Below, one piece after another: positions 950 through 51,032 of a stretch of 64,000 nucleotides of DNA. Origin of the DNA: Elusimicrobiota bacterium (GTDB taxonomy: Bacteria > Elusimicrobiota > Elusimicrobia > UBA1565 > UBA9628). The stretch is taken from NCBI GenBank assembly GCA_036676805.1, contig JAKFCD010000004.1, positions 17,687-81,686 on the forward strand. The letters are read 5' to 3'. The stretch's first letter is position 1, and each line of letters opens with the position of its first letter. The translations under genes and the position numbers were made by a program. A model generated the notes under the pieces. That model made no database searches. It was given only the letters and a program-made list of their open reading frames with translations, and was not told where the DNA came from.

Positions 950-2448
950 AAGGAGTCTCCGGGCAGGCCGGCGAGGTCGCCGTACTTGCGGCTCATGTAG
1001 CGCAGATACGGCGCGGGGTCGATAGCCCGCCCGGTCGCCGCGGTCACGATCTCCTCGGCCGTGCCGGATCTGCCGCGGCGATGGACGTTCTCGACGAGCC
1101 AGGAGAGCAAGGACGGCGCGCCGCCGCGCTCGATCTCGTCAGCGATGCCCGGGCGCTCGGCGACCGCGGCCTCCCAGAGCTGCAGGGAGACCGCGTTGCC
1201 GATGGCGTAGGTCGGGAAGTAGCCGATGAGGCCCTCCGCCCAATGGACGTCCTGCAGGACGCCGCGGGCGTCGTCGGGCGGGACGACGCCGAGATAATCC
1301 TTCATTTTCGCGTTCCACGCCTCGGGCAGGTCGACGGCGCGCAGGCGTCCGGCCAGCAGATCGCGCTCGAGCTCGAAGCGCAGGATCACGTGCAGGCCGT
1401 AGGTCAGCTCGTCCGCCTCGACCCTGATGAAGGAGGCCTCCACGCGGTTGACGGCGCGGTAGAAGTCCTCGGGGCCGAGGCCGCGCGTCTGCGGAAACGC
1501 CTCGTGGTATCGCGGGGTCCAACGCTTCCAGAAGCCGCGGCTGCGGCCGACGACGTTCTCCCACAGGCGCGACTGGGACTCGTGCACGGCGCTGGTCGCT
1601 CCCCCGCCGAGAGGCGTTCCATCGAGTTCGGGGGCGACCCCCTGCTCATAGAGGCCGTGGCCGGCCTCGTGCAGGCAGGAGTAGAGGCTCGACAGCGGCA
1701 GGTCCTCGTGATAGCGCGCGGTGATGCGCACGTCGCCGCGCCCCAGGCCGCAGCAGAACGGATGGACCGCGATGTCGAGGCGGCCGCGGGTGAAATCGAA
1801 TCCCATTTCGCGCACGGCCAGCTCGCCGAGGCGGCGCTGGGCGTCGACGGGATAAAGCCCCGGCAGGGGCGGCGCGCCGACCCCCCGCGCCAGCACGCGC
1901 TTGGCCAGCGGGGCGAGGCCGGCGCGGATCGCCTCAAGCAGGCCCCCCGCCTGCGCCGTGGTCATGCCCGGCTCGAACTCCTGGAGCCAGGCGTCATAAA
2001 GGTCCCCCGACGGAGAAAGGGCCTCGGCCTGGCGGCGCTTGAGCTCGAACATCTTCTCGAGCGCCGGACGGAAGACGGCGAAGTCGCTCTTGGCCCGGGC
2101 CTCAACCCAGAGCCCGTGACTGAGCGCGGCGTGGCGGGCGAGCTCTTCGACGAGCGCGGCCGGCACCCGCCGCCGGCGCTCATGCTCGCGCCGAGCCCAG
2201 CGAAGCATCCCGGCCTCCACGGCGTCAGCGGGTTTCTCGGCCTCGGCGGCGTCGAGCAGGCGGGCGAAGTCCTCGCCGGCGATCACCGCGTGCATCGCGG
2301 AGCCGACCGCGGCGCCGGCCTCGGCCCTGGCGGTCCCGCCCTCCGGAGGCATCATGACCGCGTGATCCCAGGCGAGCAGGCCGTCGGCGCTGCTCAGCGC
2401 CTTGAACGAACGCAGGCGGTCAAGAAGGGCGCGATAAGCCGGGGTCAT
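946..2448 (-). CDS. M32 family carboxypeptidase (carboxypeptidase Taq-like)
   Basis: 500 aa. It carries the HEAGH zinc motif (HEAGHGLYEQG), the HPFC motif and the ...TYAIGN... C-terminal region typical of the M32 family. Confidence 0.9.
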   Translation of the reverse strand: MTPAYRALLDRLRSFKALSSADGLLAWDHAVMMPPEGGTARAEAGAAVGSAMHAVIAGEDFARLLDAAEAEKPADAVEAGMLRWARREHERRRRVPAALVEELARHAALSHGLWVEARAKSDFAVFRPALEKMFELKRRQAEALSPSGDLYDAWLQEFEPGMTTAQAGGLLEAIRAGLAPLAKRVLARGVGAPPLPGLYPVDAQRRLGELAVREMGFDFTRGRLDIAVHPFCCGLGRGDVRITARYHEDLPLSSLYSCLHEAGHGLYEQGVAPELDGTPLGGGATSAVHESQSRLWENVVGRSRGFWKRWTPRYHEAFPQTRGLGPEDFYRAVNRVEASFIRVEADELTYGLHVILRFELERDLLAGRLRAVDLPEAWNAKMKDYLGVVPPDDARGVLQDVHWAEGLIGYFPTYAIGNAVSLQLWEAAVAERPGIADEIERGGAPSLLSWLVENVHRRGRSGTAEEIVTAATGRAIDPAPYLRYMSRKYGDLAGLPGDSL

Positions 2449-2454
2449 CCGCGC

Positions 2455-3513
2455 TTACGCCGGGTCGGCGAGCGACTCGGAGAGCACGCGCTCGACGTCC
2501 TTCGTCTGCGGCTGGATGAAGTACTCGAGGTTGGGCGACAGCGCGATCCCCGGCGTGGCCTTTCCGGCGAGCAGGCGCGGGCGGACCTTGAGCTCGTAGA
2601 AGCACTCGTCGACCAGTCGGCGGATCAGGTGCTCGGCGAAATTGGTGATCTCGGTCTCCTCGTTGACGAAGACGACCCGGCCCGTCTTCTTGACCGAGGC
2701 CTTGATCGCGTCCCAGTCGTAAGGGATCAGGGAGCGAAGGTCGAGCACCTCGACGGAGCCCTTCCCCTCGGCCTTGAAGCGCCGCGCGACGTCGAGGCAG
2801 ATCGGAGCCATGCGGCCGTGCGTGACGACGGTCGCGTCGGTCCCGGGCTGGGTGATCTTCGCCTTGCCGATCTCCACCGTGTAGTCGGTCAGCTTCGGCC
2901 AAGTCGCCTTCCACTTCGTGCGGTCGCCGAGCGGGGCGTCGATCATGCCGTGCAGGAGCTTCTCGTCGGCGGGCTCGCCGGGGATGAGCTCCTCGCCCTT
3001 GGAGCGCAGCAGCGCCTTGGGCTTGAGATAGAGGACCGGGTCGTCGCTCTTGATCGCCGCGATCATCAGCCCGTACGCGTCGATCGGGGTCGAGGGGCAG
3101 ACGACTTTCATGCCGTGGAGCTTCGAGGCGACGGAGTCGAACGAATGGGAATGGTACATGCTGCCGTGGATGCCCGAGCCGGTGGGCGTCATCACGACGA
3201 GCGGCGTTTTGTAGCGCCCGCCCGAGGCCCAGTGGCCGTTGGCGGCGAGCTTGAGCATATCGATCGCGTTGAAGATGTAGTCGACGAACTGAATCTCGGC
3301 GACGGGCCTGCCCCCGGCCCAGGCCAGGCCGAGCGCGGCTCCCATGATGCCGCGTTCATCGAGCGGGGAGTTCCACGCGCGCTCGAGGCCCTGGGTCGCG
3401 GTGAACACGCCGCCCAACGGGGCGCCGACGTCCTCGCCGAATATCTCGGTGACGCCGAGGTTCTCCTCGCCGTAGTGGAGGGCCATGCGAATAGCCTGCG
3501 CCATGTTGGCCAT
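2455..3513 (-). CDS. 2-oxoacid dehydrogenase E1 component beta subunit (transketolase-like, TPP-dependent)
   Basis: 352 aa. It has the pyrimidine-binding and transketolase C-terminal-like domains, for example GIMGAALGLAWAGGRPVAEIQF and the ...VVTHG... region. It lies directly downstream of the E1 alpha gene. Confidence 0.9.
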   Translation of the reverse strand: MANMAQAIRMALHYGEENLGVTEIFGEDVGAPLGGVFTATQGLERAWNSPLDERGIMGAALGLAWAGGRPVAEIQFVDYIFNAIDMLKLAANGHWASGGRYKTPLVVMTPTGSGIHGSMYHSHSFDSVASKLHGMKVVCPSTPIDAYGLMIAAIKSDDPVLYLKPKALLRSKGEELIPGEPADEKLLHGMIDAPLGDRTKWKATWPKLTDYTVEIGKAKITQPGTDATVVTHGRMAPICLDVARRFKAEGKGSVEVLDLRSLIPYDWDAIKASVKKTGRVVFVNEETEITNFAEHLIRRLVDECFYELKVRPRLLAGKATPGIALSPNLEYFIQPQTKDVERVLSESLADPA

Positions 3514-3514
3514 G

Positions 3515-4609
3515 TCAGCTGCCTCCCTTGGTCGGATAGGACGGCGGAAGGCCGCCGGCGAACACGTCTTCCCAGATGGTGTCGAGCTCGGGGAAGGGCT
3601 CGGCCTTGACCTGCTTGTGCGCCTCGTCGAGCGCGGCCATCTCCCGGGCCCAGACCTTCTTGACGTCGTCGACCTTGACGATGCCGCACTTGACCAGGTT
3701 GTCCTCGAGCACGGCGATGCAGTCCGTCTCGGGGATTCGGTTGGCGCCGGAGGACGAGGAGTGGCCGTACAGACGGCTGCACCTCGCCTCGAGAAGGTAG
3801 GGCTTGCGGTGCTTGCGGATGTAGGCGAAGGCCTCCTCGAGCGCGGCCCAGGAGTCGAGCAAGTCGTTGCCGTCGATGGTCCTGCCGGGCATGCCCGGGA
3901 ACACCTTCGCCCAGTCCGAGATATGCTTCTCGCCGTGCTGGGTAGCGGCCGCGGTCGAAATGCCCCAGCCGTTGTTGACGACGATGATCAGCATCGGAAG
4001 AGGGAGCGCGGGCCGGTTGGCCCAGACCAGGCAGGAGTGGAAGTCGCCTTCGGCCGTGCCGGCGTCGCCGCCGTTGACGATGGTGATCGCGTCGGTCTTC
4101 GCGCGGGCCTGCGCGATGCCCGTGCCGATCGCCGTCGCGTACTGCGTCTCGATCGTCGGCGAGACCGGGACCACGTTGAGCTCCGGGATCGCGTAGTGGT
4201 TGACGAAGTTGCGCCCCTTCGAATAAGGGTCCGTCCCGACCGAGCGCATCTGGCGCAGCGAGTCGATCGGCTGGGCGCCCATCGCGAGCACGATCGCGGC
4301 CGAGCGGTAATGGAGATGGAGGAAATCGTGCTCGACGCCGTGGCCCTTCTTGATCTGGAGCCCGAGGGGCACGTTGAAGGCCTCCTCGCCGGGGCCGCCG
4401 ATCCAGAAGAAGCCGTCGCCGCCCTTGCTCATCTTGATGAGGCGTTCCTCGAGCAGGCGGGCGCGCACCATCAATTCGTGGATCTTGAGCAGCTTGGCCG
4501 TCCCGAGCTTCTTGTAGGGATCGGCCGCGGCGGCGGCTTTGGAGGGCTTGGAGGCGGATTTGGCGGTGGGCATCGCGGGCATTCTAGGAAATCGGAAGCC
4601 CCCCGCCAA
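3515..4609 (-). CDS. 2-oxoacid dehydrogenase E1 component alpha subunit (TPP-binding)
   Basis: 364 aa. The TPP motif GDG...NN is present (NGGDAGTAEGDF...IIVVNNGWGIS) and the gene is paired with the E1 beta gene. No E2 or E3 gene is adjacent. Confidence 0.9.
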   Translation of the reverse strand: MAGGFRFPRMPAMPTAKSASKPSKAAAAADPYKKLGTAKLLKIHELMVRARLLEERLIKMSKGGDGFFWIGGPGEEAFNVPLGLQIKKGHGVEHDFLHLHYRSAAIVLAMGAQPIDSLRQMRSVGTDPYSKGRNFVNHYAIPELNVVPVSPTIETQYATAIGTGIAQARAKTDAITIVNGGDAGTAEGDFHSCLVWANRPALPLPMLIIVVNNGWGISTAAATQHGEKHISDWAKVFPGMPGRTIDGNDLLDSWAALEEAFAYIRKHRKPYLLEARCSRLYGHSSSSGANRIPETDCIAVLEDNLVKCGIVKVDDVKKVWAREMAALDEAHKQVKAEPFPELDTIWEDVFAGGLPPSYPTKGGS

Positions 4610-4637: not shown

Positions 4638-6125
4638 CTAATTCGCCGCGAGCTTGGCGGCCCGGTCGGACCCCTTCTTGGCGAGCTTGTGCGACGGGAA
4701 CTTGGAGACGACTTCCTTATAAAGCTCGATCGCCTTGGCGTTGTCCTTGACCGAGCTCTCGTAGACGCCGGCGGCGTCGTACAGGGCCTGAGGGGCCTCC
4801 CTGGCGCCCGCGTAGTCGTCTGAGATCTTGCGCAGCAATTCAGCCTGACGGCTGAATTCCTTTAAATCTCGGCGCGCGTAATCGGCCGCCTGCAGGAGCG
4901 CGTCGATGCCGTCCTGGCCGCCGTGCATGGAAGACAGGCGCATCAAGGTCTTGACCGCTTCGTCCGCGGAGCCCAGCCGGTCGCGCTGGAGCTTGGCGAT
5001 CGACTTGAGCGACTTCAGCGACGCAGGGGTCTTAGGGAACAGCTTCACGATGCGCTCGTGCATCTCGACGGCGAGCGCGTACTGGCGCAGCTTGTCGTCG
5101 AAGAGCCGCGCCGAGTTCTCGAGCGCGGCCTGGACCTCGGGCGCGTCCGGGTGCTTCTCGACGAGCTCCTGATAGGCGTCGATCGCCTTCCTCGGGTCGC
5201 GCAGGGCGCCGGCGTACAGGTCGCCGACGGCCATCCGCGCCTGAGCGAGGGCGGGGCTCCCGGGGAACAGCGCGAGCAGCTTGCGCCAGGACAGAAGCGC
5301 GGCGGCGGGCTTGTCGTTGGCGGCGTGAAGCCGCGCCAGCGCGGCCTGCAGCTTGTCGCCGTCCTTGTGGCCGGGGAAGCGCACGGTGAAGTCGCGGATC
5401 TCGGCGGCGACGGGCTCGTAGAGCGCGTCGGGCGCCCGCTCGGCGAGCCTGCGCCACAGCGCGGACAGGCGGTCGGCCTTGCCGGCCGTCTCGGGGAGCT
5501 TCACGAGCTCGCTCAAGATCGGGCGGTGGCGGCGCGAAGCCTTCTTGTCGACGATGGTCAGGTAGTCGGATTTCGCGCGCAGGCCGATCTTCGTCTCGGG
5601 ATATTCGTACAGGAGCCGCAGCAGGGCCGCGGTCGCGACCTGCCAATCGCCGTTCCTCTGGCGCAGGCCGGCCAGCAGAAGCATCGCCTCGGGCGCTTGA
5701 TCCGAGTCGGGGTGGCGGCGAGCGAAGAGGGCGAGCTCCTCCATCGCGGCCTCGGAGACCTTGGCCTCGGCGTCCTCGGCGGCGGCCTTGGCGAATGCGA
5801 ATTCCTCGTCGGCGCCGGGGGCCTTGGCCGCCGCGGGGACGGGCGCGGGCTCGGGCTTCGGCTCGGGTATCGGTTCCGGCTTGGGCGCCGCCGCCTGCGG
5901 CGGCGGGTCCTCTCGTTTGACGCCTTCGGCGGACTCCTCGTTCTTCGTTTCAAGCATCGAGGGGCGGGGAAGGGCGCCGCCTTCCTCCGCCGCGGCTTCG
6001 CCGGCGGGTGATTTCGCCGCCTCCCGGACCTCGGTCGGCGGCGGGACGAGCATCTCCTTGGGGGCTTCTTCCTGGGCGAAGGCCGGGGCGGCGCAGAGAA
6101 GCAGGAGCGGGAGGAAAAGTTTCAT
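4638..6125 (-). CDS. Secreted tetratricopeptide-repeat protein with a Pro/Ala-rich linker
   Basis: 495 aa. There is a signal peptide (MKLFLPLLLLCAAPAFAQEE), a PEPKPEPIPEP low-complexity stretch, and then multiple TPR-like helical repeats. Its start overlaps the CBS stop (TGATG). Confidence 0.7.
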   Translation of the reverse strand: MKLFLPLLLLCAAPAFAQEEAPKEMLVPPPTEVREAAKSPAGEAAAEEGGALPRPSMLETKNEESAEGVKREDPPPQAAAPKPEPIPEPKPEPAPVPAAAKAPGADEEFAFAKAAAEDAEAKVSEAAMEELALFARRHPDSDQAPEAMLLLAGLRQRNGDWQVATAALLRLLYEYPETKIGLRAKSDYLTIVDKKASRRHRPILSELVKLPETAGKADRLSALWRRLAERAPDALYEPVAAEIRDFTVRFPGHKDGDKLQAALARLHAANDKPAAALLSWRKLLALFPGSPALAQARMAVGDLYAGALRDPRKAIDAYQELVEKHPDAPEVQAALENSARLFDDKLRQYALAVEMHERIVKLFPKTPASLKSLKSIAKLQRDRLGSADEAVKTLMRLSSMHGGQDGIDALLQAADYARRDLKEFSRQAELLRKISDDYAGAREAPQALYDAAGVYESSVKDNAKAIELYKEVVSKFPSHKLAKKGSDRAAKLAAN

Positions 6126-7510
6126 CAGCGAGCCTCCGAGGCGCGGGACACGGCGTTGACGACGTCGTATTTGGTCACGATGTCGTAGGCGGACTTGGCC
6201 GTCTTGACGAGGACGGCCGGCCGGTCGGGCGTGAAGTAGCGCAGAACGGACTCGACGCGCGCCTCGGGGGCGAGCACCGGCAGCGGCCCCGTCATCGCCT
6301 CGCGCACGATCATCTTCTTGATGTCGCGGCCCTTGAGCATGTGGCCGAGGACCTCATCCTCCATCACCGTGCCGACGACCTTGTCCTTCTCGAAAACGGG
6401 CAGTTGGGAGATGTCGAGCTTGCGCATCAGCGCCATCGCCGCGAACAGCTTGTCGGTCGGCTTGACGGTCGCGAGCTTGCCGGTCTTGCCGTGCTTGCGC
6501 TTGGCGGCGAGGATGTCGGCGACCTTCAAGTGGACTTCGCTCTCGAAGTACTGGTTCTCCTTCATCCACTCGTCGTTGTAGATCTTGGAGAGGTAGCGCA
6601 TGCCCGTGTCGGGCACGAGGATGACCATGAAGTCCTTTTCGCCGAGCTTCTTGGCGTACTCGAGGCCGGCCACCACCGCCGACCCGCCGGAGCCGCCGGT
6701 GAGAATGCCCTCCATCGTCGCGAGCCTGCGCGTCATCAGGAAGCAGTCCTTGTCGGGCGTGACGATCACGTCGTCGACGCACTTGAGGTCCATCGTGCCC
6801 GGAAAAAAGTCCTCGCCGATGCCTTCGACGACGTAGGGCTTGGCGACCCCGATCTTGTTGTTGACGATCTTGTCGTAGTACAGCGAGCCGACGGGGTCGG
6901 AGCCGATGATCTTGATCCGGGGGTTCTGCTCCTTGAGGTACTTGGCGACGCCGGAGACGGTGCCTCCGGTGCCCATGCCGGCGACGAAGTGCGTGATCTC
7001 CCCGTCGGTGTCGGCCCAGATCTCGGGGCCGGTCGTGCGGTAGTGCGCCTTCGGGTTCTCCATGTTCTCGTACTGGTTCGGATGGAACGCGCCGGGGATC
7101 TCGGCGGTCATTTTGTCGGCGACGGAGTAATAGGAGCGCGGATCCTCGGGCTCGACGGCGGTCGGGCAGACGATCACCTCGGCGCCGAGGGCCTTGAGCA
7201 GGTTGATCTTCTCGCGGGACTGCTTGTCGGTGATGGTGAAGATCAGCTTGTAGCCGCGAAGCGCCGCGACGAGAGCGAGCCCGATGCCGGTGTTGCCCGA
7301 CGTGCCCTCGACGATGGTGCCGCCGGGCTTGAGCAGGCCCTTGCGCTCGGCGTCGTCGATCATCGCCACGCCGATGCGGTCCTTGACGGAGCCGCCCGGG
7401 TTCATGAACTCGGCCTTCACGTAAATCCGGGGCTTGAGCCCCTTCGCGAGCCGGTTGAGGCGGATCAGCGGCGTGTTGCCGATGGCTTCGAGCACGTTTT
7501 CGTAGCGCAT
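6125..7510 (-). CDS. Cystathionine beta-synthase (PLP domain followed by two CBS domains)
   Basis: The true start is MRYENVLEAIGNTPLIRL at 7510. The Arg-rich N-terminal extension of the 814-aa track ORF is rejected as an artefact. The PLP-lysine motif SVKDR and a C-terminal CBS pair are present. Confidence 0.9.
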   Translation of the reverse strand: MRYENVLEAIGNTPLIRLNRLAKGLKPRIYVKAEFMNPGGSVKDRIGVAMIDDAERKGLLKPGGTIVEGTSGNTGIGLALVAALRGYKLIFTITDKQSREKINLLKALGAEVIVCPTAVEPEDPRSYYSVADKMTAEIPGAFHPNQYENMENPKAHYRTTGPEIWADTDGEITHFVAGMGTGGTVSGVAKYLKEQNPRIKIIGSDPVGSLYYDKIVNNKIGVAKPYVVEGIGEDFFPGTMDLKCVDDVIVTPDKDCFLMTRRLATMEGILTGGSGGSAVVAGLEYAKKLGEKDFMVILVPDTGMRYLSKIYNDEWMKENQYFESEVHLKVADILAAKRKHGKTGKLATVKPTDKLFAAMALMRKLDISQLPVFEKDKVVGTVMEDEVLGHMLKGRDIKKMIVREAMTGPLPVLAPEARVESVLRYFTPDRPAVLVKTAKSAYDIVTKYDVVNAVSRASEAR

Positions 7511-9773: not shown

Positions 9774-10147
9774 GCCTTGCCGCCCTCGAGGCTGATGTCG
9801 CCGGGGCCCCGGGCGATCAGGTTGAGCAGCGCGCCCAGGATCGCGAGGTTCTTAAGGAGGTGGATGCGCTGGTCGGGGCCGGTGTGGAACACCCAGGTCG
9901 CCGCGACGAGGAACGCGGCGAGGCCGGCCGCGCCCCAGCGGGTCTTGTAGCCGAGGATGACGGCGATCGCGCCGAGCGCCTCGACGAGGATCGCCGCGAC
10001 GCACAGGAGGGCGACGGCCGGCATGCCGTGGGTCTCCATGTACTGCAAGGTCCCGTCGAAGTTGGTGATCTTGCCGAAGGCCGACGCGAGGAAGATGAGG
10101 GCCACGAACAGGCGCCCCACGAGGGCCAGCACATCGTCGGTGTCCAT
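9770..10147 (-). CDS. DoxX family membrane protein
   Basis: 125 aa with four predicted TM helices. The sequence is DoxX-like (FGKITNFDGTLQYMETHGMP...). ATGA overlap with the dnaX start. Confidence 0.7.
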   Translation of the reverse strand: MDTDDVLALVGRLFVALIFLASAFGKITNFDGTLQYMETHGMPAVALLCVAAILVEALGAIAVILGYKTRWGAAGLAAFLVAATWVFHTGPDQRIHLLKNLAILGALLNLIARGPGDISLEGGKA

Positions 10148-10242
10148 CCGATCATGTTAACAAAGAAACGCAAAGAACGACAGGGCGCCAGGTCACTGAT
10201 TATTAGGGCCTCGCCCACTACCGCGTCTGAAGATTGGGAGGC

Positions 10243-11052
10243 TCATACAGCCTTGAGGTTGTTAACGAAATCCTGAAAGGTCCGGCAGACCATCGCGCGA
10301 AAGGCTGGATCGGACCCGCCGCCGGGGCGCTGCCCTTCCACGAGGATCGTTCCTTCCGATTCGGGGGTCTTGAAATGCTTGTCGAGATTGTCCAGAAAAC
10401 GGGCATACCATTTCGGCGGGAAACCGGCTTGAAGCTTCGGGATTTCGGCTTCGCAACGCTTGCGCAGCTCCGGATAGTTGGCGAGAAGGTCGAAGACGTA
10501 ATAGAGGTCCTTCGCCTTCTTCTTAGGGTCGACGCGCTCGACGAAGCTCAGCCCCTTCTGGAAGCAGTAAGCTTCCGGCGTGGGAAACGTCGCCTCGACG
10601 TCGATCTGCTGCCCGCCGGAGGTTTCATCCTTGACGCGGACCTTCATCCTGGAAGCCAAAAGCACGTCCACATAACGCAGCAGGGTCGCCACCACCCCGG
10701 CGGGGATGGCGGTGGCCGGCCGCTCGTCCCTGCCGACGCGCGGCGTCATGAAGGTGAGCTCGATCTCCACGCCATCTTTCTCCAACTCGTAAATCGTTTC
10801 CTCAGGCCCCTTCGGACCGAAGCGGCCCAAGGGCATTCCGCCGCGGCTGCGCTCGGAGCCCTCCAGGAGTTTGCCGAGGGACGGCCGAGAGCCAGGCGAA
10901 AGATCGGCGGGCACGGTGATATCAACGTCCTTCGTTCCCAAAGGCGGCTGACCGGGCCGAGCCGTCTTGAGATATCTGTAGTAGACGAACGGCACCCAGC
11001 CGCCCGAGATCACGATATCCGGCAGGTAGGGCTTGAGCGCTTCCAGCGCCAT
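10243..11052 (-). CDS. Pol-beta-superfamily nucleotidyltransferase-fold protein (AbiEii/MNT-like). This is the downstream gene of a lower-GC two-gene cassette.
   Basis: 269 aa from the ATG at 11052, which is preceded by a GAGGA Shine-Dalgarno about 10 nt upstream. An alternative GTG start lies at 11079. The NTase signature is hG[GS] (IVISGGW) followed by DVDI (DhDh). The region is about 50-55% GC against about 70% background. Confidence 0.55.
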   Translation of the reverse strand: MALEALKPYLPDIVISGGWVPFVYYRYLKTARPGQPPLGTKDVDITVPADLSPGSRPSLGKLLEGSERSRGGMPLGRFGPKGPEETIYELEKDGVEIELTFMTPRVGRDERPATAIPAGVVATLLRYVDVLLASRMKVRVKDETSGGQQIDVEATFPTPEAYCFQKGLSFVERVDPKKKAKDLYYVFDLLANYPELRKRCEAEIPKLQAGFPPKWYARFLDNLDKHFKTPESEGTILVEGQRPGGGSDPAFRAMVCRTFQDFVNNLKAV

Positions 11053-11071
11053 AAGAAAGCTGTCCTCGTCC

Positions 11072-12136
11072 TTAGCCACCGGACGCCTCCAGATGCCATT
11101 TCGGCGCCAGGCATTTCTTGAAGAGATGCTCCGCCTGCTCCCCTCCCCGAATCGGATAGAGCTTCAAGTCCAGGTAGAGCTGGACATCGGACACGACGGA
11201 GAATCCTTTGATCACCCTGGAGCCATAACGCCCTGCCACTTGGTAATAAGGAGTCACAAGGACCAAATTGCATTCGCTTGGCGCGCCTTCCTCCAGCCGC
11301 AGTTCTTGCCGCCAATCCTCGATGCTGGCTGGAAGGCCGTCCGAATAGACGTGAACCTCCTGGAAACGGGCATGAGGGGCCACGAGCGAAGCTCCGGCCT
11401 GAAATGAAAGCAGGCCCTTGTGCTTCTGGAACGCCTTGGAAACCTTAAGAGCCTTCATGACGGCGTCGACATTGTCGGCGGGGCAACGAAATCGGTGCTG
11501 CTCCTGCTTTCGCTGACGGTAGAACTCGACCCAGTCCTGGAGAACGTCCTGAGGGCGGAAAAGCTTAAGCTTGCGGCTTTCCGAGCGGACGATGTAGCGC
11601 AACTCCTCAAGCCTGTGGCAAATCTGGCTCGCCCAGCCCGCGCTGACGCTCGCCTTCTCCGCGATCTCATTGTTGCCCCAGTAGCGCTCCGGATCGTCCA
11701 TCATGACGCGCAGCACCAAGGATGACTTGTCCGAAAAAGGACTGTTGACCTCGCGGAAGCCAGGGGCCTGCCTTTCCCGGGACCGCTGGTCGATGAGAAC
11801 GCCCGGGGCCTTAATCCAGGCGTTGCCGGCAAGGTCCACGAAGCATATCTTCTCGCCGCGCAGAAGCTCCTGCCGCTCGGGGCTCAAAGACGGCGCCGCT
11901 AGAAGCGGCATCGCCCGCTTTCCCAGGGCTATGGCCTTCAAACGCCGGACATTCTCGTTGAAATGGACGCTGGAGCGGCTCAGAAGCGCTTCCCCTAAAA
12001 ACACGTTCCGCCCGATCCGAAGCTCGAAATCCGCCCCAGCCGCACGGTCGTTAAAACGCCAGGACAGCGCGGCCTGGCCCACAAGTTGGGCCAGGCGGCT
12101 CTTTAGATGCTTTTCGAGGAAGTCCTGTTGGCGCAT
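11072..12136 (-). CDS. Winged-HTH-containing protein (AbiEi-like putative regulator/antitoxin). This is the upstream gene of the cassette.
   Basis: 354 aa. The central wHTH reads ...NNEIAEKASVSAGWASQICHRLEELRYIVR.... It has its own AT-rich promoter region with a TTGACA hexamer and a 5-6-5 inverted repeat. Its stop lies 19 nt before the NTase ATG (it would overlap an alternative GTG start). Confidence 0.5.
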   Translation of the reverse strand: MRQQDFLEKHLKSRLAQLVGQAALSWRFNDRAAGADFELRIGRNVFLGEALLSRSSVHFNENVRRLKAIALGKRAMPLLAAPSLSPERQELLRGEKICFVDLAGNAWIKAPGVLIDQRSRERQAPGFREVNSPFSDKSSLVLRVMMDDPERYWGNNEIAEKASVSAGWASQICHRLEELRYIVRSESRKLKLFRPQDVLQDWVEFYRQRKQEQHRFRCPADNVDAVMKALKVSKAFQKHKGLLSFQAGASLVAPHARFQEVHVYSDGLPASIEDWRQELRLEEGAPSECNLVLVTPYYQVAGRYGSRVIKGFSVVSDVQLYLDLKLYPIRGGEQAEHLFKKCLAPKWHLEASGG

Positions 12137-12153
12137 ATTCTTTAAATAATCAG

Positions 12154-12169
12154 TTTGGTATACACCAAA
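12154..12169. promoter_or_regulatory. Inverted repeat tttgg-N6-ccaaa in the 5' region of the wHTH gene (candidate autoregulatory operator)
   Basis: It reads tttggtatacaccaaa, 18-33 nt upstream of the ATG at 12136 on the minus strand. A TTGACA -35-like hexamer (minus-strand sense) sits at 12193-12198. Confidence 0.35.
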
Positions 12170-12401
12170 TATGTAGCAGATAGAACACTATCTGTCAATG
12201 CCCGTCGGAGAAGTGCGGCCGGGCATCGCTCTCTTCTTGCCGCACCACCGCGTCTTAAGGAAAGTTTCGTTGCCGTTTGAAAAGATCGGCGCCGAAGGCG
12301 ACGACCCTGGCCGCCCCCCGCGGGGGCGGCCATTCCGTTGGGGGGCAAATGCCGTTCAGCTCGAAGGACCCCAAAAGCCCGGGAACATGGTACGCCCAGG
12401 C

Positions 12402-12429
12402 TTGCCAAGCGGATGTTTTCCGCTATACT
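12402..12429 (+). promoter_or_regulatory. Sigma70-like promoter (TTGCCA-16 nt-TATACT) ending 6 nt before the ATG of the 12436 gene. Probably a leaderless transcript.
   Basis: -35 ttgcca at 12402-12407, -10 tatact at 12424-12429, ATG at 12436. There is no Shine-Dalgarno sequence. Confidence 0.4.
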
Positions 12430-12435
12430 AAGTCG

Positions 12436-13080
12436 ATGCGCCGGTCACTCCTCGCCATCCTCCTGCTCGCGCCCGCCCTGCCGGCGGCGGCGGCCGAGCA
12501 GGCGCCGACGCTGTGGCAGGAGCGCTTCTTCTGGGACGCCCTGCTCACCGCGCGCGACCGCCTGGCGCGCCAGCAAAGCGACCCGATGATGATCCCGGTG
12601 ATGAAGGCCATCGCCGGGCAGGTCGCCCAGCAGGTGGCCAACCTCGCCCAGATTCACCAGTACGTGCGCGCGCAGGGCGACAACCTGCGCTACGCCTACG
12701 CCCAGCCCGACCCCCAGCCGAGCCTCGACACCATCATCAACAACTTCGAGACCTTGACGACGGGCTGCGACCAGGTGCGCCAGAACCTGTACTACCTGAC
12801 CGCCCGCCAGCGTCTCGCCCAGTCGCAGGCCCTGCCCGACCCGGAGATGTACCAGACCGGCCTGCTCATCCTCGGGCAGGTGCAGCAGCTGCAGCTGACC
12901 CTGAACGCCCTGTACACCGACATGACGGCCGTGCGCGGCGTCGTCGCGGACAACGACTGGGCCAACGACCGCCACTTCAGCAACAAGACCGAGGAGCTCA
13001 TGCGCAGCATCGTGCGCGTGCAGGACTCGGTGTTCGCGGTGTACAACGCCGGCTACGAGCTGGCGATGCGCTGCCGCTGA
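12436..13080 (+). CDS. Secreted hypothetical protein (Gln/Ala-rich, 214 aa)
   Basis: It has a clear signal peptide, MRRSLLAILLLAPALPAAAAEQ. The upstream in-frame extension to 12277 lacks signal-peptide character. No domain recognised. Confidence 0.5.
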   Translation: MRRSLLAILLLAPALPAAAAEQAPTLWQERFFWDALLTARDRLARQQSDPMMIPVMKAIAGQVAQQVANLAQIHQYVRAQGDNLRYAYAQPDPQPSLDTIINNFETLTTGCDQVRQNLYYLTARQRLAQSQALPDPEMYQTGLLILGQVQQLQLTLNALYTDMTAVRGVVADNDWANDRHFSNKTEELMRSIVRVQDSVFAVYNAGYELAMRCR

Positions 13081-32074: not shown

Positions 32075-33313
32075 ATGGAAGGCTTATTCTGGTGGGCCGC
32101 GGCCTTGTGCGTCGTCCTCCTGGCCGCCCTCGCCCTCACCCTTCGCCGGCTCTATTCCTTAGAAGCCTCCCGGCCCGCCAGCGCCCCCGCTCCGGCGGCC
32201 GCGCGCGCCCCCGAAGGGTGGAGCAAGCTCGACGAGCTCCTGAACATGCTGCTCGCCCTCCAGGAGAACGGCGTCTCCCACTCGGGCGCCATCTCCCGGG
32301 AGGAGTTCGGCCGGGCGGTCCTCGACTGCGCCTGCCAGCTCATGAAGTGCGACCGCGGCTCGGTAATGAACTGGGATGAAAAAGAGGGCTGCCTCAAAAT
32401 CGTCGCCGCCCGAAGCCTCCTGGCCCAGGACGCCCAGAAGCTCTTCCTCCGCCCGGGGGAGGGCGTCGCCGGAAAGGCCTTCGCTTCCGGCCAGCCCATC
32501 TTCGTCGCCGACCCGGCCAACGACCCGCGCTACCTCGCCCCCGCCTCCGGCGACGTCGAGCCCTTCGTTTCCATCCCGTTGCTGGTCAAGGGCAAGCCCA
32601 TCGGCGTCCTCAATCTGCACGCGAAGGTCGGCGCGGAGCCCTTCAGCGACTACAACGTCAAATTCCTCAGCATACTCGCCGGCGAGGCCGCCGTCATGCT
32701 CCACAACATGGACATGTTCGACAACCTCCAGATCTTCTATCTCGAGATGGTGCAGACCTTGGCCCGCGCCGTGGACTCCAAGGACGCCTATACCGCCGAG
32801 CACTCCGACCGCGCCCGCGTGAAGGCCCGCCGCGTCGCCCAGGAGATGGGCCTGCCCGATCCGATGGTCCGCCACGTCGAGTACGCCGCGCTCCTGCACG
32901 ACATCGGCAAGATCGGCATCGACGAGGCCATCCTCCTCAAGCCCGGCAAGCTCACGCCCGAGGAATACGAGGAGATGAAGAAGCACCCCATCATCGGCCA
33001 CCAGATCCTCGCCCCGGTCAAATACCTCGGCCCCGTCGCCCAGATGGTCCTCTACCACCAGGAGTGGTTCGACGGAAGAGGTTATCCCGAAGGGCTGAAG
33101 GGCGAGCAAATCCCGCTCGGCGCGAGGATCGTCGCGTGTCTCGACGCCTGGGACGCCATGATGAGCGACCGCCCCTACCGCAAGGCTCTCGGCCGCGACA
33201 TCGCTTTGGGCGAACTGAAGAAGGGCGCCGGCACCCAATTCGACCCCAAGGTCGTGGAGACCTTCATGCGTTTGGAGCTCTCCGAGTGGTCGCGCGAGCC
33301 GGCGGCGCATTAA
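32075..33313 (+). CDS. Membrane-anchored GAF plus HD-GYP domain protein (putative c-di-GMP phosphodiesterase)
   Basis: 412 aa with an N-terminal TM helix, a GAF domain, and HD-GYP motifs HDIGK and HHQEWFDGRGYP. Confidence 0.85.
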   Translation: MEGLFWWAAALCVVLLAALALTLRRLYSLEASRPASAPAPAAARAPEGWSKLDELLNMLLALQENGVSHSGAISREEFGRAVLDCACQLMKCDRGSVMNWDEKEGCLKIVAARSLLAQDAQKLFLRPGEGVAGKAFASGQPIFVADPANDPRYLAPASGDVEPFVSIPLLVKGKPIGVLNLHAKVGAEPFSDYNVKFLSILAGEAAVMLHNMDMFDNLQIFYLEMVQTLARAVDSKDAYTAEHSDRARVKARRVAQEMGLPDPMVRHVEYAALLHDIGKIGIDEAILLKPGKLTPEEYEEMKKHPIIGHQILAPVKYLGPVAQMVLYHQEWFDGRGYPEGLKGEQIPLGARIVACLDAWDAMMSDRPYRKALGRDIALGELKKGAGTQFDPKVVETFMRLELSEWSREPAAH

Positions 33314-49103: not shown

Positions 49104-50551
49104 GCTTTGACGGCCTCCTTAATAAGCTTGTTGACGAGGGAGGGGTTCGCCTTGCCCTTCGAGAGCTTCATGACGCCGCCGACGATCGAGCCGATCGCGG
49201 CGTCCTTGCCTCCTTTCAGATCCGCGGCGGCCTTGGGATTGGCCGCGAGCGCCTGACGGACCCACTCCATGATCTGCTTGTCGTCGGACACCTGCGACAG
49301 GCCGAGCTCCTCGACGAGCGCCTTCGGCCCCTTTCCCGTCTCCCACATCTTGGCGAACACGTCCTTGGCGCCCTTGGAGGAGAGGGTCCCGCCGACGATG
49401 AGCCCGGCGAGCTCTCCCAGGTGCGCGGCGGCGACGGGAGAATCGGCGGCGGCCCTGCTCTCGGCGTTGAGACGTCCCAGCATTTCGGTGGTCAAAAGAT
49501 TGGACACGGTTTTAGCGGACCCGGGAGGAGCGGCCGCGACGGCCTTCTCGAAGTACTCGGAGAGAGCCCTGTCGCCCGTCAGAACCTCGGCGTCGTAGGA
49601 GGATAGCCCCAATTCCGCGGTAAGTCGAGCCCTTTTTTTCGCGGGAAGCTCCGGCAATTGGGCCCGGAGCTCCTCCACCCATTTCGGGTCCGCGACGAGC
49701 GGAACGAGGTCGGGATCGGGGAAATAGCGGTAATCGTGGGCGTCTTCCTTCGTGCGCATCGAGCGCCCGGCCTGCAAAACCGCGTCCCAAAGGCGGGTCT
49801 CCTGGACGATCTTCCCTCCGCTTTCGATGACTTCGACCTGGCGGCGGAACTCGGCGTCGATGGCGTCCTTGACGTTCTTGAACGAGTTCAGATTCTTGGT
49901 TTCGGTCCTGGTCCCGAACTCTTTTTGGCCGACAGGGCGCACCGAGACGTTCGCGTCGCAGCGCATCTCCCCCTTCTCCATGTCGCAGCGGGAGGCGCCG
50001 GTGAACTGGATGACCTCCTTGAGCGCGATGAGGTAGGCGTAGGCCTCCTCGGAGGAGCGGAGGTCCGGCTCGCTGACGATCTCGACGAGGGGCACTCCGG
50101 CGCGGTTGAGGTCCACGAGCGAGCCGTCGAGCTTGGAGCCGGCCAGCTCGTGCGTCAGCTTGCCGGCGTCCTCCTCCAGATGGATGCGCGTGATGCCGAC
50201 CGATTTTTCGGCGCCGTCGACCTTGATCAGAAGCTGGCCGTGCTCGGAGAAGGGCCGGTCGTACTGCGAGATTTGATAGGCCTTGGGCAGGTCCGGATAA
50301 AAATAATTCTTTCGCGCGAAGACCGACTGGTCCGCCAGCTTGCAGTCGAGCGCCATGGCCGCCTGGAAGGCGAGCTCGACGGCGCGGCGGTTGAGCACCG
50401 GAAGCACGCCCGGCTGGGCCGTGCACAGCGGGCAGATGCGGCTGTTCGGCGCCGAGCCGAAGCCGTCGGTGCCGCAGCCGCAGAACAGCTTGGTTTTGGT
50501 CGCCAGCTGGCAGTGGACCTCCAGGCCGACGATGAGCTCGTATTTATTCAC
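49100..50551 (-). CDS. gatB: Asp-tRNA(Asn)/Glu-tRNA(Gln) amidotransferase subunit B
   Basis: 483 aa (MNKYELIVGLEVHCQL...) with a GTG start. GatB/GatE catalytic and YqeY-like domains are present. Confidence 0.9.
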   Translation of the reverse strand: MNKYELIVGLEVHCQLATKTKLFCGCGTDGFGSAPNSRICPLCTAQPGVLPVLNRRAVELAFQAAMALDCKLADQSVFARKNYFYPDLPKAYQISQYDRPFSEHGQLLIKVDGAEKSVGITRIHLEEDAGKLTHELAGSKLDGSLVDLNRAGVPLVEIVSEPDLRSSEEAYAYLIALKEVIQFTGASRCDMEKGEMRCDANVSVRPVGQKEFGTRTETKNLNSFKNVKDAIDAEFRRQVEVIESGGKIVQETRLWDAVLQAGRSMRTKEDAHDYRYFPDPDLVPLVADPKWVEELRAQLPELPAKKRARLTAELGLSSYDAEVLTGDRALSEYFEKAVAAAPPGSAKTVSNLLTTEMLGRLNAESRAAADSPVAAAHLGELAGLIVGGTLSSKGAKDVFAKMWETGKGPKALVEELGLSQVSDDKQIMEWVRQALAANPKAAADLKGGKDAAIGSIVGGVMKLSKGKANPSLVNKLIKEAVKA

Positions 50552-50621
50552 GCGTTGTCCATTGTGATTGAAAAAAATCGATTGCGCCAGACCGAATCGG
50601 TTGCGGGGCTTGGGACTATGG

Positions 50622-51032
50622 TCACGCCTTCCTCAAGCAGCGGGCGATGAGCCTGAGGTCGCTCGGATAGGCGAGGCTTTTCGCCGCCGAACGCTTCGGC
50701 ACCCATTTCGTCTTCATGATCTCGACCGCGTCCGGACGCCCGGTCCTCACGAGCGGCGCCATCTTATACCAACGCACCTTTTTGGCCACCGGCCGGCCGT
50801 TGCGATTGAATCGATATCGGATCAGCGCCAACGGACCCGTACTCCGGCACTTCCAGCCGGTCTCTTCCTCGACTTCGCGCAAGGCCGCCTTCAACGGCGT
50901 TTCGCCTTTTTCCAAATGACCTTTGGGGAGGGTCCAGACGACCTTGCCTTGGAGGTTGGTCACCTTCACGAGCAAGATCTTGCCGTTCTTCTCGACGACC
51001 CCGCCGGCGGCGTATTCCTTGGCTTCCTTCAT
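50622..51032 (-). CDS. NUDIX hydrolase
   Basis: 136 aa from [13 protein letters not shown]. The Nudix box reads [26 protein letters not shown] overlap with the gatA stop. Confidence 0.75.

Follow-up and report, generated by a model that had tools for sequence, protein, structure and literature searches.

The window, a stretch of 64,000 nucleotides of DNA from an Elusimicrobiota bacterium, carries a self-contained, horizontally acquired two-gene cassette that is probably an AbiE/MenAT-type module of the branch with COG4861 partners, in which the nucleotidyltransferase (NTase) has a predicted role as toxin. Two open reading frames, both on the minus strand, fill the segment 10148-12240: gene A encodes the winged helix-turn-helix (wHTH) partner protein and gene B a pol-beta-type NTase. 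An earlier note on this DNA had described the segment as a linked pair of this kind with an AbiE-like layout, and this description is supported. Its further suggestion that the pair may be an undescribed variant was overstated, because the NTase passes PF12281 and homologues already carry NCBI names ('GSU2403 family nucleotidyltransferase fold protein' and, for some homologues of A, 'type IV toxin-antitoxin system AbiEi family antitoxin'). Dy et al. 2014 (PMC3985639) had already described NTases associated with COG4861 partners. The cassette is a new example within a catalogued, predicted branch of AbiE/MenAT toxin-antitoxin (TA) modules. Against NCBIfam neither A nor B gave a usable match; among the PADLOC-DB v2 models B matched none, and A matched only PDC-M05A (E 0.007), across the HTH.

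The features are listed below by position in the window; the promoter-like site, the second inverted repeat and the translational-coupling junction were read directly from the sequence.

~10172-12415, no strand: inserted segment of ~2.24 kb, delimited by empty sites in relatives and by GC, borders good to ~10 nt
10243-11079, minus strand: gene B, 278 aa, NTase and putative toxin, Pfam PF12281 NTP_transf_8 ('GSU2403 family')
11072-12136, minus strand: gene A, 354 aa, three domains, partner and putative repressor/antitoxin of COG4861 / AbiEi_2 type
11075-11554, minus strand: C-terminal AbiEi_2 domain of A, aa ~195-354, dead NTase-like fold, presumed toxin-binding
11077-11090, minus strand: translational-coupling junction, GGAGG (11090-11086), 6-nt spacer, GTG (11079-11077)
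11561-11722, minus strand: central wHTH of A, aa ~139-192
11783-12136, minus strand: N-terminal domain of A, aa 1-~118, restriction-endonuclease-like PD-(D/E)xK fold (Foldseek)
12154-12169, no strand: candidate operator, the 16-bp palindrome TTTGGT-GTAT-ACCAAA, immediately following the -10, at 18-33 nt before the ATG of A
12170-12198, minus strand: promoter-like site, -35 TTGACA (12198-12193), 17-nt spacer, -10 TACATA (12175-12170)
12178-12193, no strand: second inverted repeat AGATAG-TGTT-CTATCT, within the promoter spacer
12290-12331, minus strand: pair of GC-rich hairpins within the insert, on the upstream side of the promoter (terminator scan and direct reading)

The insertion and its control region

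The ~2.24 kb segment is a strain-specific insertion, since the site is empty in at least 17 related metagenomic contigs, where the two flanking genes lie 36-330 nt apart. Neither A nor B is present in any of 74 doxX loci. The insert is bounded by two native promoters, that of doxX (…CGTTTCTTTGTTAACATG-N6-ATG) and that of the secreted-protein gene (TTGCCA-16-TATACT). The horizontal acquisition that had been proposed is supported by these comparisons and also by base composition. The GC content over 10148-12240 is 59.5%, as against 68.6% for windows of the same size elsewhere (sd 2.5%, minimum 63.0%), and this dip of ~3.6 sd makes it the lowest-GC stretch of that size within the window. GC3 is 74% in A and 77% in B, compared to 93-97% in doxX, dnaX, recR and the secreted-protein gene. 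The low GC reported by the earlier note is real when computed exactly, but the value given there (48-55%) exaggerated it; GC of 44-54% is reached only by intergenic bits of the segment. The inserted DNA also extends further to the right than the end at 12240 then assigned, to ~12415.

We found no terminal inverted repeats, mobility genes or recognizable ends in the insert, and a search of Rfam over 9900-12600 returned no match. Two 17-nt direct repeats flank the operon (10216-10232 and 12243-12259); they were considered as att sites or as a target-site duplication and rejected, as both are located within the insert and other cassettes lack them, and they are probably due to chance. In some relatives (six loci) the same intergenic site holds larger occupants, whose genes have native GC and no relation to A or B.

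The promoter-like site upstream of A received no call in a consensus promoter scan because its -10 is weak. A TTGACA-17-TATAxx arrangement is also found upstream of gene A in seven loci (L001, L003, L010, L011, L012, L014 and L015), in differing flanks. The same seven comprise the cassettes of the Elusimicrobiota clade, and in all of them the 16-bp palindrome is placed at the same relative position. The pattern TTTGGT-N4-ACCAAA has a single match in the 64-kb window, where 0.01 would be expected, and occurs in none of the 74 doxX loci. We infer that A binds this candidate operator; the inverted-repeat operator that had been claimed for the promoter finds a counterpart in a clade-conserved palindrome adjoining the -10, to which binding is predicted. 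The second inverted repeat is weaker evidence than the palindrome, because its conservation is limited to the closest cassettes (L011 and partly L003) and does not extend to L010, L014 or L001. Further upstream, the two hairpins (GGCCGCCCCCGCGGGGGGCGGCC at ~12309-12331, and at 12290-12303 a stem with a T-run that resembles a terminator) may insulate the cassette from read-in transcription.

The two proteins

Protein B matches PF12281 with 40.6 bits (E 3.6e-10, aa 21-198; gathering threshold 26.3), and the family is likewise matched by 31/31 B homologues and by 10/10 distant representatives tested. PF12281 alone was reported for B in Pfam at E≤1, without PF08843 (AbiEii/DUF1814). The pol-beta NTase signature recognized earlier is present as DIVISGGW...TKDVDI, with the catalytic residues in place. 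Across 45 diverse members, residues G26, D53, K175 and D191 are invariant, and conservation is 90% or higher for G27, T49, D51, R182 and K190; in profile A1 the entire pol-beta catalytic set (G26-G27, D51-V-D53 and E107) is invariant. The conserved motif set of B comprises hGG, T-x-D-x-D, E107, K175..R182 and K190-D191. Four motifs have been described for DUF1814, namely I, hG[GS]; II, DhD; III, K..a..R; and IV, +DxxD (PMC3985639). The first three are all present in B as G26G27, D51xD53 and K175-x3-F-x2-R182, and K190-D191…D197 is equivalent to the +DxxD of motif IV with altered spacing; in distant relatives of B the COG4849/DUF1814 motifs KLxAaxxR and +DxxD are found in exact form. Between motifs I and II (hG[GS] to DxD) the spacing is 23 residues in B versus the x15 reported for AbiEii (PMC3985639), which agrees with the earlier observation that the motif spacing is unlike that of AbiEii.

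Thr49, two residues before D51, is invariant in profile A1 and at least 90% conserved in profile A5. An HMM alignment puts the family's T49-x-D-x-D on T39-R-D41-V-D43 of MenT1, for which the roles of T39 and S78 have been described (PMC11375011). The AF2 model of B (pLDDT 89) finds its best PDB structural matches in 5uvd, MenT3/TglT and MenT1 (Foldseek), the MenT matches at probability 0.99-1.0; the link to the MenT proteins is weak in places, with a Foldseek E of ~2e-3 and TM-scores of 0.43-0.57. Searches of the PDB with the single A or B sequence or with profile A1 gave no significant sequence match; with the broader profile A5 the top sequence match was MenT1, at a marginal E of 0.064.

We prefer GTG 11079 as the start of B. 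This start overlaps the stop codon of A (TAA, 11074-11072), and the resulting 8-nt overlap of the two genes recurs in the gene calls of homologous loci (e.g., 4944-6008 / 6001-6843). The start chosen in the earlier note, ATG 11052, which would give a protein of 269 aa downstream of A, is rejected, as Met10 is Leu in most homologues, the B homologues are all ~278-281 aa long, and their N-terminal AKxED residues are kept.

Protein A, whose AF2 model has a pLDDT of 91.8, has 119 homologues, the distant ones carrying PF09952. The window protein itself scores 18.6 bits against PF09952, under the gathering threshold of 21, but is connected, with E values from 1e-25 to 1e-60, to many homologues with PF09952 as a precomputed domain. 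Its wHTH is central, as had been noted, because an extra N-terminal domain comes first. This N-terminal domain has the fold of NucS/EndoMS (2vld, 5gke; Foldseek probability 1.0, E 4e-3, ~100 residues covered) and, at the level of the family, a D…E-x-K nuclease-like motif (D36 in 43/48, E49 in 39/48 and K51 in 28/48 sequences); the window protein differs in having Leu for Lys at position 51. The domain is probably inactive in the Elusimicrobiota clade. We know of no nuclease activity in COG4861 proteins, nor of any counterpart of the domain in characterized AbiEi or MenA antitoxins, and the latter point speaks against the TA reading. For the C-terminal AbiEi_2 domain, hhalign detected no homology with B by sequence (probability 1.2%); its kinship with B is a structural one, suggested by the predicted models.

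Pairing, distribution and known relatives

The two genes occur as a unit: in 48/48 genome loci that hold upstream DNA, A directly precedes B in the same orientation, abutting or overlapping it. These 48 paired loci span Elusimicrobiota, Desulfobacterota, Chloroflexota, Aminicenantes, Gemmatimonadota, Planctomycetota and Ignavibacteria, and the pairing is also found in L058, in Verrucomicrobiota (L061) and on Burkholderia conjugative plasmids. In two 486-aa proteins, the wHTH, AbiEi_2 and NTP_transf_8 are naturally fused in one chain. No conserved third gene accompanies A and B among the compared loci. Some cassettes have mobile contexts (an integrase; a plasmid with TrwC/RepC/ParAB) and others defense contexts (a Gabija-like AAA+UvrD pair, a type III R-M locus, the inside of a type I R-M operon). 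The idea that the pair travels in defense islands is not sustained by the neighborhoods as a whole, which are heterogeneous, include many housekeeping genes and give no consistent island signal. A search of 50,697 phage records returned no homologues. Gene B is disrupted (split, truncated or interrupted) in about eight loci, in most of which A is still one ORF; this pattern would fit the decay of a toxin gene, and MAG errors could also have caused it. The PF12281 NTase family comprises ~1,900 clusters at 50% identity, yet it is missed by standard defense-finder models, and to our knowledge none of its enzymes has been characterized biochemically.

The pairs of COG4861/PF09952 with COG4849/DUF1814 proteins described by Dy et al. 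2014 (PMC3985639) have the same large wHTH partner upstream of a pol-beta NTase. The homologues of A share PF09952 with them, the distant relatives of B share the COG4849 motifs given above, and MenT1, a COG4849 protein, is the best PDB match of B by sequence profile and among the best by structure. The window cassette differs in that B belongs to PF12281 and not to PF08843, and in that A falls below the PF09952 threshold. The example with a COG4861 partner in M. tuberculosis is MenA2/MenT2 (Rv0837c/Rv0836c). We know of no member of the PF12281 / COG4861 branch that has been demonstrated to be toxic, which counts against the TA reading.

AbiEi/AbiEii of Streptococcus agalactiae and Lactococcus lactis (COG5340 + COG2253/PF08843) were once classed as type IV and are now proposed to be a type VII TA/Abi system. 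They resemble the window cassette in their bicistronic, antitoxin-first operon and in the inverted-repeat operator of the promoter, which is a candidate here. AbiEii has motifs I-IV in common with B, and in both a Thr stands two residues ahead of the first catalytic Asp (T65/D67 in AbiEii, T49/D51 in B). The AbiEi antitoxin joins a wHTH with an NTase-like C-terminal domain (PMC7319586), as A does. The differences are that both proteins belong to other Pfam families, that A has the extra PD-(D/E)xK-like domain and a central wHTH and so does not fit the AbiEi pattern of an N-terminal wHTH plus a COG5340 C-terminal domain (AbiEi_1/3/4), and that B, besides its longer hG[GS]-to-DxD spacing (23 residues versus ~15), has KDLYYxFD as motif IV in place of +DxxD. 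MenA1/MenT1 and MenA3/MenT3 (TakA/TglT) of M. tuberculosis are tRNA-acceptor-stem NTase toxins that are neutralized by auto-phosphorylation induced by the antitoxin. MenT1 and MenT3 are structurally closest to B, which keeps the catalytic T/S-x-D-x-D, Lys and Asp; however, B is just 12-15% identical to them in sequence, MenA3 is a COG5340 protein, and MenA1, at 68 aa, is a peptide that lacks an HTH.

Proposed mechanism and alternative readings

The mechanism that we propose for the cassette is borrowed from the MenAT systems (PMC7450476, PMC11375011). The central wHTH of A would bind TTTGGT-N4-ACCAAA, abutting the -10, and repress the operon, and the C-terminal AbiEi_2 domain with its dead NTase fold would dock on B and hold it inactive. 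Silencing may occur by occlusion or by induced auto-phosphorylation of Thr49 beside the catalytic Asp51/Asp53, as modeled on the type VII systems MenA1/MenT1, MenA3/MenT3 and AbiEi/AbiEii. B, translationally coupled to A, would be an active pol-beta-type PF12281 NTase that, once freed from A, probably adds nucleotides to tRNA 3' ends and thereby arrests translation and growth; the outcome could be plasmid or island stabilization, abortive infection, or both. Several results tell against this reading: the non-toxicity of MenA2/MenT2 described below, the lack of a PF08843 match for B, the sub-threshold PF09952 score of A, the weak link to MenT, the mixed neighborhoods, and the lack of usable NCBIfam or PADLOC matches and of homologues in the phage records. 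For this genome the cassette would be a routine mobile TA/Abi-type island. Its wider interest is that it is a clean, laterally inserted NTase module with an empty-site control, that it belongs to the least-studied AbiE/MenAT branch, with a COG4861-type partner and a PF12281 NTase, and that it offers predictions (the 16-bp operator, the Thr49 phospho-switch, the pseudo-NTase docking domain and the nuclease-like domain) for which tractable homologues exist on the Burkholderia conjugative plasmids, e.g., the Burkholderia gladioli plasmid homologue WP_338510258.1.

We tentatively entertain a second possibility, that the cassette is not a classical TA system and instead forms a conditional two-component defense or regulatory module, whose NTase is harmless until activated by its partner, which would serve as a sensor through its nuclease-like and wHTH domains and not as an antidote, or whose NTase has a target other than tRNA. 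The behavior of MenA2/MenT2, the sole tested pair with a COG4861 partner, would agree with this, as it was non-toxic in M. smegmatis and E. coli, with MenT2 non-toxic when expressed alone (PMC7450476). In L. lactis AbiE both genes are needed for defense, as cited in 10.64898/2026.01.19.700257. A is also larger than B and has the additional conserved PD-(D/E)xK-like domain, the natural fusions suit a regulator-enzyme unit better than a labile antidote, and some loci lie in R-M or Gabija-like islands. However, B keeps all MenT/AbiEii-type activity residues together with the phospho-acceptor Thr, B appears to be a pseudogene in the roughly eight loci mentioned above, where A is mostly still one ORF, and an antitoxin-first, translationally coupled and (as predicted) autoregulated layout is typical of TA modules. 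It is also conceivable, if unlikely, that the PD-(D/E)xK-like domain and the wHTH of A sense or cut foreign DNA and that the dead-NTase domain switches B, so that COG4861/PF12281 would be a sensor-effector defense system; if true, this would explain both the non-toxicity of MenT2 alone and the existence of single-chain fusions.

That the cassette is the decayed remnant of a mobile element, without current function, we consider very improbable. The lack of a mobility gene or recognizable ends in the insert and the loss of K51 from the nuclease-like motif of A would be in line with decay, but both ORFs are intact, full-length and overlapping as in homologues, every catalytic and family-invariant residue of B is present, the promoter and palindrome are intact, and the identical cassette is present in independent assemblies. 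There is an equally slim chance that a wHTH repressor here controls a small-molecule NTase, for example an antibiotic-modifying enzyme of the ANT/Lnu type. Against this, B has no Pfam ANT or Lnu match at E≤1, its top 50 Foldseek PDB matches include MenT3 and MenT1 and no antibiotic NTase, and resistance genes are not known to have an obligate pseudo-NTase partner of the kind present here in 48/48 loci; K..R and +D, both conserved in B, are motifs specific to DUF1814/COG4849 (PMC3985639). The suggestion of an MNT/HEPN-like module, made in the earlier note from the string RFQEVH at aa 257-262 of A, a C-terminal R-x4-H that would mark a HEPN RNase, is almost certainly wrong, as no Pfam HEPN family is matched by A, B, which has 278 aa and a C-terminal half made of helices, is no minimal NTase, R257 is found in only 21/48 and H262 in 26/48 sequences, and the motif falls on a beta-strand within an NTase-like alpha/beta fold and not in an all-helical HEPN domain.

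Anatomy and foreign origin of the cassette

The cassette consists of two genes on the minus strand, gene A for a winged helix-turn-helix (wHTH) protein, the putative antitoxin, and gene B for a nucleotidyltransferase (NTase), the putative toxin. The features of the operon are:

11072-12136, minus strand: gene A, 354 aa, ATG start
10243-11079, minus strand: gene B, 278 aa, GTG start, 8-nt overlap with the TAA of gene A
12198-12193 and 12175-12170, minus strand: promoter-like site of gene A, TTGACA and TACATA with a 17-nt spacer, read from the sequence
12169-12154: 16-bp palindrome TTTGGTGTATACCAAA, directly after TACATA, read from the sequence
10216-10232 and 12243-12259: 17-nt direct repeats, 15/17 identical, flanking the A-B operon on both sides

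The two genes stand as the earlier note described them, except for the start of gene B, which it placed at ATG 11052 to give 269 aa. We prefer the GTG because homologues of B are ~278-281 aa long, the 8-nt overlap is also present in gene calls from other assemblies, the residues N-terminal to the proposed Met are conserved (the Met itself is Leu in most homologues), and the sequence reads GGAGG 6 nt 5' of the GTG.

By exact count, the GC content of 10148-12240 is 59.5%, against a mean of 68.6% (sd 2.5%, minimum 63.0%) for windows of the same size elsewhere in the 64 kb. This makes it the lowest-GC stretch in the window, ~3.6 sd below the mean, although the 48-55% first estimated is true of intergenic bits only. 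GC3 is 74% in A and 77% in B versus 93-97% in doxX, dnaX, recR, the secreted-protein gene and a receptor gene. Milder dips are seen at ~32500-33100 and ~50000-50800 (1-kb windows of 61-63% versus a mean of 68%).

A metagenome search with the DoxX protein as query gave 74 loci, none of which contains A or B. The order secreted-protein gene, doxX, dnaX and recR is kept in relatives with 66-89% DoxX identity, and in at least 17 relatives the gap between the secreted-protein gene and doxX is only 36-330 nt. These empty sites, together with the absence of both genes from the doxX loci and the dip in GC and GC3, bear out the suspected horizontal acquisition. Aligned to the empty sites, the window reveals an insert of 2.24 kb (~10172-12415) between the native promoter of doxX and that of the secreted-protein gene. 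No integrase, terminal inverted repeats or target duplication were found for the insert. The 17-nt repeats, one 123 nt before the ATG of A and the other 11 nt past the stop of B, both fall within the insert and are present in no other cassette; their placement around the operon may be coincidence.

Both native promoters, TAACAT-N6-ATG for doxX (10145-10163) and TTGCCA-16-TATACT-N7-ATG for the secreted-protein gene (12402-12435), are conserved in relatives and appear to be leaderless or near-leaderless. In other relatives, unrelated genes of native GC fill the site, and in loci L065, L066, L077 and L080 hairpin or MITE-like elements with bounds GGTGTCAGGCC…GGCCTGACACC occupy the stretch between the secreted-protein gene and doxX that corresponds to window ~10170-12415; those of L066 and L080 have long inverted arms of >60 nt. 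Given this variety of occupants, the site looks like an insertion hotspot.

The palindrome, TTTGGT-N4-ACCAAA, occurs once in the window (0.01 expected), is found in none of the doxX loci, and recurs at this position in all cassettes of the Elusimicrobiota clade despite unrelated flanking DNA. Such a phylogenetic footprint supports the prediction of an inverted-repeat operator in the promoter. A second repeat, AGATAG-N4-CTATCT, is conserved in the closest relatives only. An Rfam search of the region returned no RNA family.

The nucleotidyltransferase and its partner

Gene B matches PF12281 (NTP_transf_8) with 40.6 bits (threshold 26.3) and has no other match in Pfam, NCBIfam or PADLOC; its homologues go by the NCBI name 'GSU2403 family nucleotidyltransferase fold protein'. 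Searched with the family profile, 1.84 billion representatives yielded 1,882 clusters at E≤1e-3, of which 877 also reach E≤1e-10. Among 45 diverse members, G26, D53, K175 and D191 are invariant, and at G27, T49, D51, R182 and K190 conservation is 90% or more. The conserved residues correspond to motifs I-IV, which Dy et al. (PMC3985639) defined for the DUF1814/AbiEii toxins; however, as the earlier note remarked, the spacing differs, the 23-residue gap between motifs I and II being longer than that of AbiEii. KLxAaxxR and KDAYD occur exactly in distant NTases (loci L058 and L061). The AF2 model of B (pLDDT 89) finds its best PDB matches in 5uvd and the NTase toxins MenT3/TglT and MenT1, with Foldseek probabilities of 0.99-1.0, but E values of only ~2e-3 and TM scores of 0.43-0.57. 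MenT1 is also the top PDB sequence match of the broader family profile (E 0.064), in an alignment that places its T39-R-D41-V-D43 opposite T49-K-D51-V-D53 of the B family.

Protein A scores 18.6 bits against PF09952 (AbiEi_2, the COG4861 family), under the threshold of 21, and gives weak Pfam matches to IclR/MarR HTH domains at aa 140-188. Nevertheless, its 119 homologues grade into PF09952-bearing proteins, and the NCBI annotation of some is 'type IV toxin-antitoxin system AbiEi family antitoxin'. The AF2 model (pLDDT 92) has three domains, among them:

aa 1-~118: N-terminal domain, NucS/EndoMS PD-(D/E)xK nuclease-like (Foldseek probability 1.0)
aa ~139-192: central domain, wHTH

The wHTH is thus central, as first described, and follows the nuclease-like domain, which the literature searched does not discuss for the partner. 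The N-terminal motif of the family comprises D36 (43/48), E49 (39/48) and K51 (28/48); position 51 is Leu in the window's clade. Because both protein families are already catalogued and annotation pipelines already name the homologues, the cassette is a divergent representative of a type of system that is known and was predicted, and not the undescribed variant once suspected.

Pairing and predicted mode of action

The NTase-profile search gave 48 genome loci with DNA upstream of the NTase, and in every one of them the gene immediately before it, on the same strand, is a homologue of A; the two reading frames abut or overlap. These loci belong to Elusimicrobiota, Desulfobacterota, Chloroflexota, Aminicenantes, Gemmatimonadota, Planctomycetota and Ignavibacteria. 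A reverse search from distant partner homologues again recovered the pairing, and the genes downstream of the partner in L058 and L061 have no Pfam match yet match the NTase profile; one partner, the truncated one in L059, stands alone. Two proteins of 486 aa each from different 50% clusters, P0264 and P0284, combine wHTH, AbiEi_2 and NTP_transf_8 in a single chain, without the N-terminal nuclease-like domain. These fusions argue for a direct functional coupling of partner and NTase.

The best-supported reading is that of a mobile, autoregulated AbiE/MenAT-type module from the branch with a COG4861 partner and a COG4849-like NTase, a pairing predicted by Dy et al. 2014 (PMC3985639). By analogy, the wHTH of A would repress the operon, and the pseudo-NTase domain of A would keep B inactive, possibly via induced phosphorylation of Thr49; free B would nucleotidylate tRNA 3' ends, and translation would stop. 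In MenT1, MenT3 and AbiEii, antitoxin binding leads to auto-phosphorylation of T39, S78 and T65, respectively (PMC11375011; 10.64898/2026.01.19.700257). A serious rival is that the large partner acts conditionally in defence, as a sensor, since MenA2/MenT2 of M. tuberculosis, the only tested COG4861-type pair, showed no toxicity (PMC7450476). An MNT/HEPN module, raised earlier for the R-x4-H motif RFQEVH in the partner, is poorly supported and we reject it, as the motif sits on a beta-strand and is not conserved; the reading of B as an antibiotic NTase is likewise poorly supported.

Genomic contexts and possible decay of the NTase gene

The pair is kept as a unit, with no consistent defence-island setting of the kind considered in the earlier note. 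It lies near an integrase in L001, on a plasmid in L003 that also has TrwC/RepC/ParAB and a HigBA-like pair, and close to a Gabija-like AAA+UvrD pair, Schlafen and Fic genes in L005. L058 is a type III R-M locus, and in Luteolibacter algae (L061:630-10580, JBHUIT010000034.1) a distant pair is found inside a type I R-M operon, with hsdM/hsdS/DUF4268 on one side and hsdR on the other. At many other loci the neighbours are housekeeping genes. On conjugative plasmids of Burkholderia/Paraburkholderia the pair adjoins an integrase and IS elements; the pair on p1 of Burkholderia gladioli is WP_338510259.1/WP_338510258.1. Among 50,697 phage records there was no homologue.

In ~8 loci (L014, L015, L044, L045, L049, L050, L051 and L057) the NTase reading frame is split or frameshifted, truncated or interrupted, in L049 by ~2.4 kb between 3593 and 5977, while the partner is still one intact reading frame in most of them. 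This could reflect decay of a toxin gene or an error in the assembly of these MAGs. A Desulfococcus MAG contig (L039) carries two tandem partner-NTase pairs (2194-4102 and 4888-6761), the second with a much more divergent NTase (profile E 1e-14). An identical gene A with a 99% identical NTase (278 aa) is found on a 3.6-kb MAG contig (L006/L009; JAKFCW010000115.1, GCA_036676455.1) whose end lies 364 nt 5' of gene A; its bin label, 'Candidatus Sericytochromatia', is doubtful because all close relatives of the cassette are from Elusimicrobiota.
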